Source: Gammaproteobacteria bacterium
GTDB taxonomy: Bacteria > Pseudomonadota > Gammaproteobacteria > SZUA-152
DNA length: 64,000 nucleotides
Assembly: GCA_011321815.1 (NCBI GenBank)
Contig: DROS01000096.1
Location: 10,750-74,749, forward strand
Direction of reading: 5' to 3'
Shown piece after piece: positions 1,910 to 46,402 of this stretch (the stretch's first letter is position 1; each line of letters opens with the position of its first letter). A program made the position numbers and the translations under genes. The notes under the pieces were generated by a model. It was not told the origin of the DNA. It did not search any database and saw only the letters and a program-made list of their open reading frames with translations.

Positions 1910-2076
1910 CTAGGAGTCTGTCGGACTTAGGGTGAATTTACTGCGAAAAAACCATTTCGGCCCATTTTCCCGATCCTTTTCGTTGAATATGTCCAATATT
2001 CGCCTCAAACGATCAACAAAATGGACTCAAAATGGTTTTCTCTCGCGACGATTCCCTAAGTCCGACAGACTCCTAG
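1910..2076 (+). repeat. MITE-like element, intact copy 1 (167 bp) with 22-bp terminal inverted repeats CTAGGAGTCTGTCGGACTTAGG
   Basis: It has perfect terminal inverted repeats. An approximately 95% identical copy lies inverted at 11036-11202 and degenerate copies lie at 30766-30920 and 33497-33646. It sits in the divergent fabI / ABC-operon promoter region. Confidence 0.65.
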
Positions 2077-10959: not shown

Positions 10960-11035
10960 GCAGTTAGACGATTATGACAGTAAATGCGTTCCACGTCATG
11001 TTGTCGGCCAGAGCTGTACGTTCCTTAGTGGGTGC

Positions 11036-11202
11036 CTAGGAGTCTGTCGGACTTAGGGAATCGTCGCGAGAGAAAACCATTTTGAGTCCGTTTTTTTGAT
11101 CGTTTGAGGCGAATATTGGACATATTCAACGAAAAGGATCGAGAAAATGGGCCGAAATGGTTTTTTCGCAGTAGATTCACTCTAAGTCCGACAGACTCCT
11201 AG
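11036..11202 (-). repeat. MITE-like element, intact copy 2 (167 bp), inverted relative to copy 1
   Basis: It carries the same 22-bp terminal inverted repeats and an internal sequence about 95% identical to the reverse complement of copy 1. Its right inverted repeat overlaps the last codons and stop codon of gloB. Confidence 0.65.
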
Positions 11203-11993
11203 TCCAGGGTGTCTTTCCAGTGACGTACGACGGCAAAGACCTCTGCACCTGTGTGCAATCTGCGACCGGAAAAACCCTCGGCAGCCCGGATGATTCCGGC
11301 CTGTCCACAGCGTAAAAAGGGGTTGGTGGCTTTTTCTTCCCCCAGCAATGAGGGTACGGTGGCATGGCCCTGTCTGCGCTGCTGTTGCACGGTTTGCTGC
11401 CGTGTCTGGAGTGCGGGGTTATCAGGCTCAGCAATGCGGGCAAAGGCCAGATTGTCCTCGGTATATTCGTGGGCACAGTAAACCCTGGTGTCGTCAGGCA
11501 AGGCGGCAATCCGCTCCAGCGAATCGTGCATTTGTGCAGGCGTGCCTTCAAACAGGCGGCCGCAGCCACCGGTAAACAGGGTGTCGCCAACGAAAATCAT
11601 ACCATCCCCGTCAGTGTTGCTGGCCGGGTGGTGGTAGGCAATGTGTCCGGCAGTATGGCCGGGGACGTGCAAAACCTGAAAATCTGCTGACAGTGCTTCG
11701 ATGTGTACATTATCGCCATTGACCAGTGGTTGACTGATGTGAGGAATGGTTTCGCGGGCAGGGCCGTAAACCGGCATAGGCCAGCGGGCCAGAAGGTCTT
11801 CAATACCACCGACATGATCCCAGTGATGGTGGGTAATCAAAATGGCCACGGGTTTCAGTGATTGTGCAGTGATGGCGGCGATAACCGGCGTGGCGTCGCC
11901 GGGATCGACGATGACCACCTGCGGCAGGTCCAGGTGCCGGATCAGCCAGATGTAATTGTCTTCAAAGGCATTGACGGTTTGGACAGTGAGCAT
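11199..11993 (-). CDS. gloB: Hydroxyacylglutathione hydrolase (glyoxalase II)
   Basis: The 264-aa metallo-beta-lactamase-fold protein has the 'THHHWDHVGG' zinc motif and GloB-type length and C-terminal region. Confidence 0.9.
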   Translation of the reverse strand: MLTVQTVNAFEDNYIWLIRHLDLPQVVIVDPGDATPVIAAITAQSLKPVAILITHHHWDHVGGIEDLLARWPMPVYGPARETIPHISQPLVNGDNVHIEALSADFQVLHVPGHTAGHIAYHHPASNTDGDGMIFVGDTLFTGGCGRLFEGTPAQMHDSLERIAALPDDTRVYCAHEYTEDNLAFARIAEPDNPALQTRQQTVQQQRRQGHATVPSLLGEEKATNPFLRCGQAGIIRAAEGFSGRRLHTGAEVFAVVRHWKDTLD

Positions 11994-30139: not shown

Positions 30140-30769
30140 ATGAAAAAAACGTACGCGAACTGGTCATTTGTATTTTATCTGGTCATTTTCTTTATCGTTT
30201 TGATAAGCGGATGCGCCTCAAAAAAACAACCGACGCTTGATTCTGCAACATATGCCAGCGGGGCGCCGCTGTACATTATCGGCCCGGGTGATAGCGTAAA
30301 TATATTTGTGTGGGGAAATCGTGAATTATCTTCGTCAGTGCCGGTGCGCCCTGATGGCCGGATAACAACACCCCTGGTTGAAGATGTTGTCGCCAGTGGC
30401 AAAACGCCAACCCAATTAGCCAGGGATATGGAAAAGGAGCTTGCGCGCTACATAAAAAATCCAGTGGTCACTGTTACTGTAACCGGCTTTACCGGCCGCT
30501 ACAGTGAGCAAATTCGGGTGATTGGCGCAGCCGCAAAAGCTCAGTCGTTACCTTATAAAGAACACCTGACACTGCTGGATGTGATGATCACGGTGGGAGG
30601 GCTGGCTGAAATTGCGGCTGGCAACAAGGCCACCATTGTACGTGTGGTGGATGGAGAACAGCGGCAATATAATGTGCGACTGGATGATTTGATTCAGGAA
30701 GGGGATATCACTGCTAATGTCGATATGCTTCCGGGAGATGTATTGATCATTCCTGAAGCGTGGTTTTAG
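30140..30769 (+). CDS. Polysaccharide export outer-membrane lipoprotein (Wza/EpsE family)
   Basis: The 209-aa product has a lipobox 'LISGCAS', a Poly_export motif 'YIIGPGDSVNIFVWGN' and a SLBB-like C-terminus. Confidence 0.85.
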   Translation: MKKTYANWSFVFYLVIFFIVLISGCASKKQPTLDSATYASGAPLYIIGPGDSVNIFVWGNRELSSSVPVRPDGRITTPLVEDVVASGKTPTQLARDMEKELARYIKNPVVTVTVTGFTGRYSEQIRVIGAAAKAQSLPYKEHLTLLDVMITVGGLAEIAAGNKATIVRVVDGEQRQYNVRLDDLIQEGDITANVDMLPGDVLIIPEAWF

Positions 30770-30920
30770 GGTCTGTCAGATTTGGTAAATCTACGGTGAA
30801 AAGTTCATTTTGACCGGTTTTCCCGGTTACGGTGTTGGATATGCGCAATATTATTCCCAAATGACCAGAAAAATGAGCTCAAAACAGCTTTCTCCTGTGC
30901 CGATCATCTAATTATCCGAT
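30766..30920 (+). repeat. Degenerate copy of the 167-bp MITE-like element
   Basis: The left end 'ttagggtctgtcaga' resembles the terminal inverted repeat. The internal block 'ggatatgcgcaatattattcccaaatgaccagaaaaatgagctcaaaacagctttctc' is homologous to the copy 1 core. It overlaps the stop codon of the Wza-like gene. Confidence 0.4.
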
Positions 30921-30968
30921 GGGCTCTGGATTTACGGAATGCAAACGAATTAATCGACAAGGCTATTC

Positions 30969-33424: not shown

Positions 33425-33496
33425 TGCTCTGTCCATACGATAATCACGAAACCCGCAGCGATCACATGGGTCGGGCAATAGTATTTGTTGAACCTG

Positions 33497-33646
33497 GAAT
33501 GAATCTATTGCAAAGAATCCATTTAGGCCCGTTTTTTTCGATCATTTTCGTTAAATATGCGCAATATGTTTCATCTCAAATGATCAAAAAAATGGACGCA
33601 AAATGGCTTTTTCCCGCGACGATTATTTAAGCCTGACAGGCTCCTA
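33497..33646 (+). repeat. Degenerate/truncated copy of the 167-bp MITE-like element (right inverted repeat 'ctgacaggctcctag' retained)
   Basis: An internal sequence about 75-80% identical to the copy 1 core ends in a near-terminal-repeat 'taagcctgacaggctcctag'. The left repeat is lost. Confidence 0.45.
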
Positions 33647-33692
33647 GTTCGTGATATTTCTGGCTTCGCCCCGGACAAATGATGGCTACATG

Positions 33693-42597: not shown

Positions 42598-43342
42598 GGC
42601 TTTTCTCCTTTGAGAGACGAAATACGCACCGGCTCCTTGATATTGGATGGTGGTAAAAGTTAATGACTAAATCATTCGTTACATTACCAGTAGCGACGCT
42701 GCCTTCCTTCCAGATTGACGCTTTACGAATGGCAAGCGGAGAGACGGAAAAAAACGGAGCCCTCACTGCAACTATAGACTATATATACCCGTAGCGATTG
42801 AGATTCAGGCCTGATTGCACGCCCTGTTTCCGCCATGGCCGCGTTGTTGTCCTTGTCATAGAATAACGATTACGTGTCATGTCGCCTCGCCATGCAGAAA
42901 ATATGACGCACACTTAAACCGAAACCCCAAACGCCACGAGTATATGGCGCTGTGTCATCAATGTGATAATGACCGGAAATTTCATAAATGTGATTTTTAG
43001 GGTGTAAAAAAACGTGACCGTCCGGTTAAGGAAATCCGGCGATTCTGATGAAATCACGCCTAACAACAAACGTCGTGCCTTGATGACATCAATGCCTGTG
43101 CCAGCAGCAGGTCTTACCCAACCGGGGTGTTCTTTATGTTTAAAAAATGCCAAATTTAAAGGAACAACCTGGGGCGCTTGTCCGTCTACACGGCGTAAGA
43201 GTCTCGGTAGTTACCTCATCAGATAAGAATTTGAGTACCGTGTCGCAAATCAATCGACTGTCAGTCAATATGCCGGGCGCAGGGACGATGATATTTCCCG
43301 GAAGCTGTGTGCTCCCCCGTTTAGTAAGCAGAGGAATGTGTA

Positions 43343-46300
43343 ATGCCATGGATTAAGCCCGTTTTCCCTTCCACTATATGCTGTCCCCGTCGTTTTGTAT
43401 CGGCGTTTTTCTTTTTCGCGGTGTTACTGATTTCAAACCATGCCTTCGCTGTAATTGGTGCGGCGCCAAACACCACCATTCAGAATCTCCCCGCCAACAC
43501 CTGGTACGAGGTTCCGAACAGCGAGATGCGTCAAGTGGAAGCCAAGGGCGCGGATTATCCCGGCATCTGGGGTAACCACCCGGATGATCCCACGCCAAGG
43601 AAGAGCAACTTTCCAAGTGGTCAGGGGGTTTTTCTGTGGAGTGGTGCAGTGTTTGACGACTATCGCAATCGCCTGGTGTTATGGGGTGGTGGGCACAACT
43701 CATACTACGGTAACGAGCTTTATGCCTTTGATCTCACCTCCTTAAACTGGGAACGGGTTACCAACCCCTCGCCGCCCACTTATGATGATATTTGTGTTGC
43801 TGTTTTGTCTGATGGCAACCCCAATAGCCGCCACACTTATTACAATCTGGCCTATATCCCCACCACAGACAAATTTTTTTCCACGCCGGCAGGGACCACA
43901 TCCTGCGAGGCTTCCGGATTGGATTTCAACACCTGGAGCTTTGATTTCGATAGTAAAGACTGGCTCAATCTTGCCCCCGCCACCGAACTTAACGGTAACG
44001 GCAAGGCAGTACAGCCCCCGGGTTGGGCGCCTACGGCGGCGGCTTACAATCCACTGGATAACAAGGTGTACTCTGTTGGCCCCGAGGGGCTGTTTGCCTA
44101 CGATGTGGTTGCCAATCGTTGGGATAAACTGAATTCCTCCGGATTGGGGGGAGACCGCGGTGTGGTGGTGGACGAGAAGCGTGAGCTGCTAGTCGTGGTG
44201 GGGCGTGGTGAGGTGGTGGTCTACGATTTGGCCAATCAGAATTATACCCCCCAATTCTGGGATACCGTGGGTGATGAGGACTATAACCTTAATAATAATT
44301 TCCGCCCGGGTGTGAATTACGATCCGGTGGCGGACCGCATCGTAGTGTGGGATGGGGGAGCCGTGCGTGCGCTCAATATGGATACCCGTCGCTGGGATGA
44401 TCTTGCGGTGGCGCCCCAGGTGCGCCATTTTACGGGCACTTACGGTCGCTTTCGCTATAGCCGACGGGAAAACGCCTATGTGTTGGTCAATGATGCGACA
44501 GAGAATGTACTGATCTACAAGCTGGCAGACCCTGCTGCCTTGCGGGTGGTTCTGGACCCTGTTGATATTGCCGTGGATCAGGGGCAAACCGCAACATTCA
44601 GTGTGTTCGCAATTGGTGATAGTGAGCTTAGCTATCAGTGGCGCAAAAACGGAGGAGTCATTGACGGTGCCACACAGGCAAGTTACACACTCACGGCCTC
44701 CGATATGGCTGACAATGATGCGGAGTTTGATGTCGAAATCACCAATAATGGCAGCAGCCTGATCAGCGCTTCCGCCAGGCTTACGATTGTTCAGGACATT
44801 GATGCCCCGACAGTGGTTTCTGTACTGCCCCTTGGGGCTGACACTGTCCAGGTGGTGTTCAGCGAGCCGGTGGAAACAGCGTCGGCACAAAATGCCAGTC
44901 GTTACAGCCTCGCGCCTTCCGTCACAGTCAATAGTGCTGTGCTGGCGGCCAACACTCGGGTGGTGTTGCTTGATGTCAGTGGCCTCAGTGAGGGCACTGA
45001 ATACACCCTGATCATTGACGACGGTATCAGCGACCGCGCTATTGTGCCCAACGTCATGACAGAAATGACCAATGTCAATTTTGTCTATCGCGCCAATGAA
45101 GGGTTCGAGGGTGGTGATGCCGCAGGTTTTGAGCCCCAAACGCCATCGCGCTGGACGGTGGTACAGGACGGTGGTGATTACGCCTACAGTCTTAATACTT
45201 CAAATTTTGACAGCCCTGGCAATGGCTTGTTGGGTGAATACAGTCTGTTGCCGGGGATCTATGGTGACGTGGTGTTTAGCGTTAATGCCCGGCTGGGTGA
45301 CGAGGTGGCCAGTAATAATTTCGCTGATATGGCGCTGTTGTTTGGTTATCAGGACGCCAATAACTATTACTATCTGCTTCTTAATAATGCAATGTCTGCC
45401 ACGCAATTGTTCAAAGTGGAATCGGGTCGCCGTAGCGAACTGGCCACGGCCACGACGGACTGGTTGAATGACAACCTTTATCACGCCATTGACATTGTGC
45501 GTAGTGGTGATCAAATCCGGGTCACTTTTGATGGCAACATGCTGCTGAGCGCCACGGATGCCACGTTTGCGATGGGTCGTCTGGGCGTTGGCAGCTTCAA
45601 TGATTCCGCCTTTTTTGATGACGTTCGCGTACGTGCGGTACCTGCTGGTGGTGCCACCAATAGCGCGCCCACGGCTGCCAGTGCCAGTATTACAACCAAT
45701 GAAAACACACCGAGCGGAGGTGTATCCGCGCAGGTAACAGACCCGGATGATGGCGCTGATCATGTTATCAGCATTGTTTTACAGCCTTCGAACGGTACTG
45801 CACAGGTGATTAACAACAAGCTGGTTTACACGCCAGGCACAGGATTTGTCGGCAATGACAGCTTCCAGTTCAGCGCCACGGACTCGGGCGGGCTGTCTGT
45901 CACCGGTATTGCCAGCGTTACGGTGTTGGCCGCGGGGGGTGGAAACAATGCACCCACCGCCGCCAGTGCCAGCATCACTACCTACGAAGATACATCGAGC
46001 GAAGGTGTGTCCGCGCAGGTAACAGACCCGGATGATGGCGCCGATCATGTTATCAGCATTGTTTTACAGCCTTCGAACGGCACTGCACAGGTGATTAACA
46101 ACAAGCTGGTTTACACGCCAGATAGCGGTTTTGTCGGTGATGACAACTTCCAGTTCAGTGCCACGGATTCGGGCGGGCTGTCTGTCACCGGTACCGCCAG
46201 CGTCACAGTGTTGGCAGAAGAGCCGTCTGACAATGGCGGCAGTTCCACGGTGGGTGGTGGCAGCGGTGGTGGCGGTGGCAGTTTTGGCGTATTGCTGCTA

Positions 46301-46402
46301 TTGGCCCTGTTGTTCATGAAATACAGTTTTGTCTTTCTTTCTGTTCCGGCACATCGTCAAAATAATCTTGATGCTGTACTGAGGGTTGATCAGTTGTCCT
46401 GA
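43343..46402 (+). CDS. Large secreted multi-domain surface protein (Kelch/beta-propeller-like region, Ig-like domains, concanavalin/LamG-like domain, two tandem cadherin/VCBS-like repeats, Gly-rich linker and a C-terminal hydrophobic anchor)
   Basis: The 1019-aa product has a signal peptide (…FFFAVLLISNHAFAV) and an Ig-like segment '…FSVFAIGDSELSYQWRKNGGVIDGATQASYTLTASD…'. Two 95-aa repeats are present. The C-terminus is 'GGGSGGGGGSFGVLLLLALLFMKY…'. Confidence 0.75.
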   Translation: MPWIKPVFPSTICCPRRFVSAFFFFAVLLISNHAFAVIGAAPNTTIQNLPANTWYEVPNSEMRQVEAKGADYPGIWGNHPDDPTPRKSNFPSGQGVFLWSGAVFDDYRNRLVLWGGGHNSYYGNELYAFDLTSLNWERVTNPSPPTYDDICVAVLSDGNPNSRHTYYNLAYIPTTDKFFSTPAGTTSCEASGLDFNTWSFDFDSKDWLNLAPATELNGNGKAVQPPGWAPTAAAYNPLDNKVYSVGPEGLFAYDVVANRWDKLNSSGLGGDRGVVVDEKRELLVVVGRGEVVVYDLANQNYTPQFWDTVGDEDYNLNNNFRPGVNYDPVADRIVVWDGGAVRALNMDTRRWDDLAVAPQVRHFTGTYGRFRYSRRENAYVLVNDATENVLIYKLADPAALRVVLDPVDIAVDQGQTATFSVFAIGDSELSYQWRKNGGVIDGATQASYTLTASDMADNDAEFDVEITNNGSSLISASARLTIVQDIDAPTVVSVLPLGADTVQVVFSEPVETASAQNASRYSLAPSVTVNSAVLAANTRVVLLDVSGLSEGTEYTLIIDDGISDRAIVPNVMTEMTNVNFVYRANEGFEGGDAAGFEPQTPSRWTVVQDGGDYAYSLNTSNFDSPGNGLLGEYSLLPGIYGDVVFSVNARLGDEVASNNFADMALLFGYQDANNYYYLLLNNAMSATQLFKVESGRRSELATATTDWLNDNLYHAIDIVRSGDQIRVTFDGNMLLSATDATFAMGRLGVGSFNDSAFFDDVRVRAVPAGGATNSAPTAASASITTNENTPSGGVSAQVTDPDDGADHVISIVLQPSNGTAQVINNKLVYTPGTGFVGNDSFQFSATDSGGLSVTGIASVTVLAAGGGNNAPTAASASITTYEDTSSEGVSAQVTDPDDGADHVISIVLQPSNGTAQVINNKLVYTPDSGFVGDDNFQFSATDSGGLSVTGTASVTVLAEEPSDNGGSSTVGGGSGGGGGSFGVLLLLALLFMKYSFVFLSVPAHRQNNLDAVLRVDQLS
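45656..46225 (+). repeat. Two tandem 285-bp near-identical repeats inside the surface-protein gene
   Basis: The anchor 'gccagtgccag' occurs at 45677 and at 45962 (period 285 bp). The encoded repeats '…APTAASASITT…VSAQVTDPDDGADHVISIVLQPSNGTAQVINNKLVYTP…FQFSATDSGGLSVTG…' are more than 90% identical. Confidence 0.8.

Follow-up and report, generated by a model that had tools for sequence, protein, structure and literature searches.

Bacterial MITEs, i.e., non-autonomous DNA transposons, have been little studied so far, and most of the described families are confined to one genus. The best-studied model for the effects of such elements on neighbouring mRNAs is provided by the Correia elements (CREE) of Neisseria. 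These are short MITEs that form hairpins, with terminal repeats of about 26 bp, and they lie beside genes and are inserted at a TA-containing target with its duplication, and their transcripts are cleaved by RNase III. In Yersinia, the YPAL elements (RU-2) reportedly insert close behind stop codons, an observation ascribed to De Gregorio et al. 2006, and horizontal transfer of another family, Nezha, to a betaproteobacterium is said to have been proposed.

Nezha itself is known from Anabaena and Nostoc (Zhou et al. 2008). According to the passages devoted to it in PMC3184786, its members are 130–170 bp long, form a stable hairpin, have terminal inverted repeats (TIRs) common to ISNpu3 and near-constant direct repeats, and show filled and empty sites between relatives. 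MITEs associated with an insertion sequence (IS) of the IS1182 family have been tabulated for Methanosarcina acetivorans, where the partner is ISMac2 and the elements measure 160 bp (inverted repeats of 26 bp, direct repeats of 4 bp) and 169 bp (inverted repeats of 25 bp, direct repeats of 0 bp) (PMC3852290, Table 4).

The window considered here, by which the whole analysed stretch of 64 kb (64,000 nucleotides) is meant, contains four copies of a repeat that is 167 bp long when intact. In our opinion, this repeat is very probably a non-autonomous DNA transposon whose ends are used in trans by an ISAzo1-like DDE transposase of the IS1182 family. With the MITEs of M. acetivorans it has in common the family of the partner IS, a size in the range of 160–169 bp, inverted repeats of about 25 bp and a direct repeat that is either 4 bp long or apparently absent, the latter being the very look that a CTAG duplication takes on depending on where the repeat is drawn. 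It differs in that their host is archaeal, and this comparison concerns sizes and repeat lengths. The likeness to Nezha, drawn from its published description, consists in the size, the hairpin, the TIRs shared with an IS and the filled and empty sites. Both the ISMac2-associated MITEs and Nezha could be the same thing as the present family. The preliminary description of this DNA had called the family previously uncharacterised, and this holds in so far as the terminus sequence was found in no paper of the literature searched, although the IS1182-associated Methanosarcina elements of 160 and 169 bp had already been tabulated (PMC3852290). Thus the family is new, or at least unnamed in the literature searched, the ISMac2 MITEs and Nezha having been compared by description only.

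The Correia elements may be regarded as the nearest well-studied functional analogue, from which the present family differs in sequence, genus range and putative transposase. The YPAL/RU-2 elements (167–168 bp) are the same in length and in forming a hairpin over the whole element; identity with them was rejected, since the local alignment score was 11 against 9.7 ± 1.5 for shuffles and the ends differ (RU-2 sequence from PMC2759123). Chunjie of Geobacter uraniireducens is also a hairpin MITE, with 21-bp TIRs, and comes from a genus related to some of the carriers considered below. Its identity with the present family was rejected as well, because it measures 178–235 bp and has 9-bp direct repeats (PMC3184786), as against 167 bp with a CTAG duplication.

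Against this background, the family stands out by its identifiable transposase partner, its rare and defined target (CTAG) and the fact that TAG stop codons are hit without being destroyed. It spans more than ten labelled phyla with a fixed length, a covarying hairpin, an asymmetry between its strands and a core unrelated to the sampled partner IS. It may therefore serve as a practical model for studying why short transposons are palindromes over their whole length, how non-autonomous elements persist and move between distant hosts, and what effects hairpins have on flanking transcripts.

Copies in the window and their insertion sites

Two intact copies had been reported in the preliminary description, at 1910–2076 and, inverted, at 11036–11202, and both were confirmed by a repeat search and by a search with the 22-mer CTAGGAGTCTGTCGGACTTAGG. 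This 22-mer occurs four times in the 64-kb window (at 1910, at 2055 on the minus strand, at 11036 and, with one mismatch, at 11181 on the minus strand), with none expected by chance (100 shuffles), and the occurrences make up two inverted pairs, each of which delimits 167 bp. The two mutually inverted copies are indeed nearly identical, and the earlier figure of about 95% has to be corrected to 97% (differences at 5 of 167 positions). Their TIRs, described as perfect over 22 bp, are perfect in copy 1 (22–23 bp) and contain one mismatch in copy 2. The two decayed copies that had also been mentioned were both recovered, with slightly wider limits, by an unfiltered search of the whole window with a covariance model (R1) trained solely on relatives from other genomes. 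The features are as follows:

1910–2076, minus strand (the best strand in the family covariance model, which is the G.U-rich strand): copy 1, intact 167-bp MITE
11036–11202, plus strand: copy 2, intact 167-bp MITE, inverted relative to copy 1; 169.7 bits in the covariance model
30765–30930, minus strand: copy 3, decayed, 66% identity to copy 1; 22.4 bits in the covariance model, E 2e-4
33478–33647, minus strand: copy 4, decayed, 78% identity to copy 1; 58.1 bits, E 3.8e-14
1910–1932, plus strand: TIR arm of copy 1, 23 bp, perfect, with its partner at 2054–2076
2054–2076, minus strand: other TIR arm of copy 1, 23 bp, perfect
11036–11057, plus strand: TIR arm of copy 2
11181–11202, minus strand: other TIR arm of copy 2, one mismatch
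1910–1913 and 2073–2076: CTAG at the ends of copy 1, presumed duplicated target, judged by flank lengths against relatives
11199–11202, minus strand: CTAG on the gloB side of copy 2; its TAG (11201–11199) is the gloB stop codon
11036–11039: CTAG of copy 2 facing mltD, the other copy of the duplicated target
30767–30769, plus strand: TAG stop codon of the export gene (30140–30769), inside the decayed terminal TTAG of copy 3

In the covariance search, copy 1 scored 165.3 bits on the minus strand versus 90.3 bits on the plus strand, and one terminus of copy 4 (33626–33647) is still readable. A fifth candidate at 42781–42945 (11 bits, E 0.2) was rejected, since it has no recognisable termini.

All four copies are intergenic, as had been stated. 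Copy 1 is situated in the fabI–oppA spacer, between the divergent fabI gene and an oligopeptide-type ABC transporter operon, and copy 2 in the spacer between gloB and mltD. Copy 3 lies between the polysaccharide export gene of an XrtA system and the chain-length determinant gene, and copy 4 between the gene of the XrtA-associated tyrosine autokinase and that of a TIGR03016 outer-membrane protein. Of the three copies earlier placed inside or next to an exopolysaccharide island, copies 3 and 4 do belong to the XrtA/PEP-CTERM exopolysaccharide locus; for copy 2 the wording "next to" was generous, because about 6.6 kb with housekeeping genes separate it from this locus. A promoter-like sequence, ATGACG-17-CATAAT (10971–10999, minus strand), which is conserved in relatives, was noticed ahead of mltD, 36 bp beyond copy 2, so that the insertion took place between the gloB stop codon and the promoter-like site of mltD and touched neither of them. 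Adjoining the exopolysaccharide locus, a reading frame of 1019 aa (43343–46402) includes a 266-nt tandem direct repeat, 89% identical (45665–45930 and 45950–46215, also 45531–45558), which probably represents a domain repeated within a large protein.

Empty sites were found for both intact copies. At the site of copy 1, the relatives L130 and L131 (FabI 89–93% identical) keep the synteny of fabI and the transporter and are without the element. The window reads here AATCAATCAA-CTAG(159 bp)CTAG-AGCCGGACAAAACG (the right flank being also given as AGCCGGAC), L131 reads AATCAATCAA-TTAC-GTCCCGACAAAACG, and L130 has TACC at the same place. A single TTAC, TACC or TTAG is present at this target in the relatives, and the lengths of the flanks match exactly only if one CTAG existed before the insertion. 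The locus with the best FabI match (L124) was dropped as an empty site, its upstream region being unrelated.

At the site of copy 2, three relatives (L147, L148 and L150) have no element between gloB and mltD. Their gloB ends in GAT TAA or GAC TAA, and the window has GAC TAG at the same codon. The gloB reading frame of the window (11199–11993, minus strand) terminates within the CTAG of copy 2, which provides the base completing the last codon of gloB together with its stop codon. Since the relatives end gloB at the same codon, the CTAG on the gloB side is host sequence, and the CTAG on the mltD side is its duplicate.

The net gain per insertion, as determined from the empty sites of both intact copies, is 163 bp. 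A target-site duplication is present, masked by the palindromic CTAG at both ends, and the gain fits staggered cuts that duplicate either the 4-bp CTAG or the 2-bp TA, two variants that look the same because CTAG is its own reverse complement. With either variant, the element proper would be about 159–161 bp long, with the duplication hidden in its terminal repeats. Repeats of 4 bp were also obtained with ISPse1, an experimentally captured element of the IS1182 family (PMC3281130, Table 2), and some members of this family are reported to target palindromes, according to a passage in PMC5678879 that cites Siguier et al.

One flank of copy 2 exceeds its counterpart in the three relatives by 11 nt and bears a near-repeat of the opposite flank (11000–11035 and 11203–11220): one side reads CACCC(TGG)ACTAG, the other CACCCACTAAG. 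This junction is therefore not perfectly clean, and the near-repeat could be either a chance indel or a remnant of a duplication that was longer and imperfect.

Among the palindromic tetranucleotides of the window, CTAG is the rarest by a wide margin, with 10 sites in the 64 kb (1910, 2073, 11036, 11199, 21945, 30031, 30987, 33644, 44189 and 61400) versus 247 expected from base composition or 28 from a second-order model, and the other fifteen palindromes have 110–437 sites. Five of the ten sites are ends of MITE copies, which is of importance for annotation: the family accounts for half of the CTAG sites in the window and for many contig breaks in metagenome bins. Among the matches listed, 15 of the 57 elements elsewhere have a terminal CTAG whose TAG serves the adjoining reading frame as its stop codon, and insertions of this kind were also found in two of eight copies from the metagenome Ga0256830 and in copies 2 and 3 of the window. 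As CTAG is scarce and often belongs to a C-TAG stop, the surviving insertions would be intergenic and would frequently sit on a stop codon regenerated by the duplication. C-TAG stops are likely to be among the few CTAG sites where insertion is harmless, the stop being restored in this way.

Size and distribution of the family

The number of copies goes well beyond the four of the window. In a collection of species-representative genomes, the exact 21-bp terminus was found on at least 119 contigs, and paired termini delimit at least 57 elements of 166–170 bp. Among the matches listed, the record titles of the carriers name Desulfobacterota, Nitrospirota, Verrucomicrobiota, Bacteroidota, Spirochaetota, Cyanobacteriota, Planctomycetota, Acidimicrobiia, Eremiobacterota and four classes of Pseudomonadota. 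The labels of these listed carriers cover more than ten phyla, most of them being taken from metagenome bins and some from short contigs, so that single labels may be wrong. Two carriers are isolates, namely Geotalea toluenoxydans JCM 15764 and Pseudomaricurvus alcaniphilus MEBiC06469, and several carrier contigs are hundreds of kilobases long.

The two orientations of the element can be distinguished, and 56 oriented elements align over their full length. This alignment is characterised by conserved interior motifs, a mean column identity of 70–71% and near-invariant TIRs. No conserved reading frame was found in the 56 members, and no frame is open in more than 20 of them.

A 29-mer specific to the subfamily of the window was found on 14 contigs, all from one metagenome (Ga0256830, JGI 3300028399) and including the locus of copy 1 (L143). 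At least eight further complete 167-bp copies are present in this metagenome, 95–99% identical and situated at distinct loci, with junctions that consist of just CTAG or of its one-base variants (CCAG, CGAG). The subfamily consensus exists as an actual copy (L138), which folds at −98.5 kcal/mol. Near-identical dispersed copies of this kind are the pattern of recent bursts from a master sequence. Ga0256830 (contigs L128/L129 and L133–L146) contains two related populations, i.e., the window's own, with a filled fabI site (L143), and a related species, in which FabI is 88% identical and the fabI site is empty (L128). This pair may be used for a population-level study of the element.

In a plasmid collection, the whole element as a query gave one weak match (Pseudomonas sp. 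MPC6), and the terminus gave a Methylobacter plasmid only, with no match to cyanobacterial plasmids or to that of Polaromonas JS666; with so few plasmid matches, the element is tied to no named MITE. A search of viral contigs gave a single match, and phages are therefore no obvious vehicle.

The hairpin and its strand asymmetry

The preliminary description had pointed out that the inverted repeats could form a long hairpin, and each intact 167-bp unit does fold end to end into one hairpin. For copy 1, this single end-to-end structure has −76.7 kcal/mol (z −10.3 against dinucleotide shuffles). In the alignment of 56 members, 92.7% of the pair cells are standard in the better-folding orientation, in 41 of 60 pairs both partners have changed, and three or four pair types occur at many positions. 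These values of pairing and covariation were reached by none of 500 shuffles, and pairing dropped to 33–48% in a control where the partners were slid by 1–3 columns. Covariation is located in the interior, and the terminal 20 pairs hardly vary, as is expected of a protein-binding site. It is the hairpin fold, rather than the sequence, that is kept.

A conserved internal loop contains a GTAG-bearing motif that recurs in direct orientation on the two arms, reading ..TCGTAGCGAG.. and ..CGCAGTAGAT.. on the G-rich strand (columns ~27–36 and 145–150 of alignment A5; positions 2041–2050 and 1935–1944 of the window). Direct rather than inverted motifs are unusual for a palindromic element.

The strand that folds better as RNA, which is the reverse complement of 1910–2076 (+), is the same in all 56 members, with a mean of −90.8 versus −73.2 kcal/mol for the other strand, and the consensus fold has −76 versus −34 kcal/mol by strand. 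G exceeds C on the favoured strand in 56 of 56 members. Non-Watson–Crick cells comprise 229 G.U versus 51 A.C, with the same direction of bias in 18 of 20 variable columns; these cell counts are inflated by sequence relatedness and possibly reflect fewer events. The two strands thus differ in a way that would not be expected if double-stranded DNA were all that is constrained.

This asymmetry of folding, of G.U over A.C and of G over C, together with the extensive covariation, the conserved unpaired motifs and a core unrelated to the sampled partner IS (see below), speaks for another explanation. According to it, the core, which spreads by means of IS1182-type ends, functions as a structured RNA or as a strand-specific structure of single-stranded DNA, and selection acts on the fold of one strand, for instance as an RNase III substrate, a stabiliser or destabiliser of mRNA or a regulator of the partner transposase. 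We consider this rather unlikely. The orientation of the elements relative to flanking genes is unbiased (8 co-directional one way versus 9 the other), and at copies 2, 3 and 4 of the window the favoured strand is antisense to the neighbouring genes. Neither a promoter-like nor a terminator-like site was found inside copies 1 and 2. The few private mutations of young copies show a weak lean (about 9 G.U versus 4–5 A.C), and the asymmetry as a whole could stem from fewer events than the counts suggest. A known structured non-coding RNA, considered earlier as an alternative, also found no support: the search of the window against Rfam gave no family at the gathering score, and at a relaxed threshold the sole match was MIR5062, a plant miRNA hairpin, with 35.7 bits versus a threshold of 140. 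In annotation, the family should be masked before small-RNA searches.

If the 120-nt core were, after all, a strand-specific functional RNA or single-stranded DNA structure shaped by compensatory evolution across many phyla, which seems doubtful to us, the family would represent a mobile structured nucleic-acid module riding on IS1182 ends and not an inert filler. In that case, either the transposition of so short an element would need the hairpin in cis, or the hairpin would act in the host, e.g., by controlling neighbouring or transposase mRNAs through RNase III.

Partner insertion sequences and the proposed transposition

A full-length IS with the same terminal repeats, which the preliminary description had proposed to search for, was found. 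The termini CTAGGAGTCTGTCGGAC... also bound full-length IS of the ISAzo1 group, 1553–1581 bp long, which encode DDE transposases of the IS1182 family. Three such IS of about 1580 bp are present in a cyanobacterial bin (L060:3517–5097, L090:306–1884 and L099:6113–7693), and their transposases match NCBIfam NF033551 (transpos_IS1182) and Pfam DUF772, DDE_Tnp_1 and DDE_Tnp_1_6. In all three, the transposase is divided between two overlapping frames in the same manner, with 217 aa and 295 aa in L060 and in L099 and with a second frame of 273 aa in L090. This points either to programmed frameshifting or to a defective element that has been copied in trans.

Annotated plasmids contain related transposases with 48–51% identity, including that of ISAzo1. 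The IS on a plasmid of Methylobacter sp. YRD-M1 (NZ_CP091426) has exactly CTAGGAGTCTGTCGGAC at its ends, ISAzo1 of Aromatoleum aromaticum EbN1 has CTAGCAGCGTGTCGGACT, and the IS of P. aeruginosa and Polaromonas have CTAGCAGCCTGTCGGNCTT; the close variant CTAGCAGCNTGTCGGNCT bounds ISAzo1 of Aromatoleum as well as the P. aeruginosa and Polaromonas elements. As judged by sequence, the terminus is the conserved end of one IS1182-family clade, which would explain why it is identical across distant hosts. In a search for transposase homologues, this partner clade proved to be abundant and to be named "IS1182 family transposase", and no link to ISMac2 or ISNpu3 was found in the same search.

The IS of the ISAzo1 group share with the 167-bp element the terminal 17–22 bp and CTAG at both junctions, with no longer direct repeats; they differ from it in their length and in encoding a 450-aa DDE transposase, whereas the 167-bp element is non-coding. 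Comparison of the 167-bp core with the subterminal DNA of five partner IS gave best local scores of 10–15, which correspond to background. Similarity to the partner IS is confined to the terminal 17–22 bp, and the element is therefore not a simple deletion derivative.

The same data make it highly improbable that the copies are independent remnants of IS1182-family elements, each having lost its interior in place, and not a transposing unit of 167 bp. The ends are indeed identical to IS1182-family ends, and other short elements (67–308 bp) with these ends exist, but the same length of 166–170 bp and an alignable core recur at unrelated loci in many genomes, copies of one population are 95–99% identical at different sites, and the core does not resemble the subterminal DNA of the IS. 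Equally hard to believe is the action of a RAYT-type enzyme (HUH, single-strand DNA) on a palindromic repeat of the REP/BIME kind, a reading which would naturally explain a strand-specific hairpin tolerating G.T and would agree with the strand asymmetry, with the GTAG-containing motifs conserved in direct orientation on both arms and with GTAG-tagged REPs being a known class in the relevant passages of PMC3733652, but the REPs of those passages measure 20–40 bp as against 167 bp with the 22-bp ends of a DDE-type IS, and the CTAG duplication fits staggered double-strand cuts.

The repeat is, by every testable defining feature, a MITE: its length is 166–170 bp, it is non-coding, it has TIRs and a target duplication, its copies are dispersed, empty sites exist, and its ends are shared with an IS. 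The earlier proposal of a non-autonomous transposon is thus supported by the copy number, the target duplication, the ends of the partner IS and the hairpin. In the mechanism that we propose for this MITE, the 22-bp ends would be, on the strength of their sequence, the binding and cleavage sites of an IS1182-family DDE transposase. The enzyme would act in trans, coming from another place in the genome or from an IS that had resided there earlier, and would insert the element at the palindromic CTAG, presumably with duplication of CTAG or of its TA core. No transposase was found in the 64-kb window, nor on those contigs of its population that were retrieved, so for the organism of the window we infer the mobilisation in trans. 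The interior would represent a lineage of its own, and not a deletion remnant of the sampled partner IS, and would be kept as one long imperfect hairpin. The ability to fold may have been selected in transposing lineages, and this is the presumable reason for the hairpin.

Other short elements with the same 21–22-bp termini have lengths of 67–83, 97, 122, 146, 213–262 and 308 bp. They were found on the contigs L001, L004, L009, L024, L032, L036, L038, L039, L043 and L044 and also on L064, L067, L072, L084, L094, L098, L100, L103, L105 and L119. It seems that this one clade of transposases is used by several non-autonomous families.
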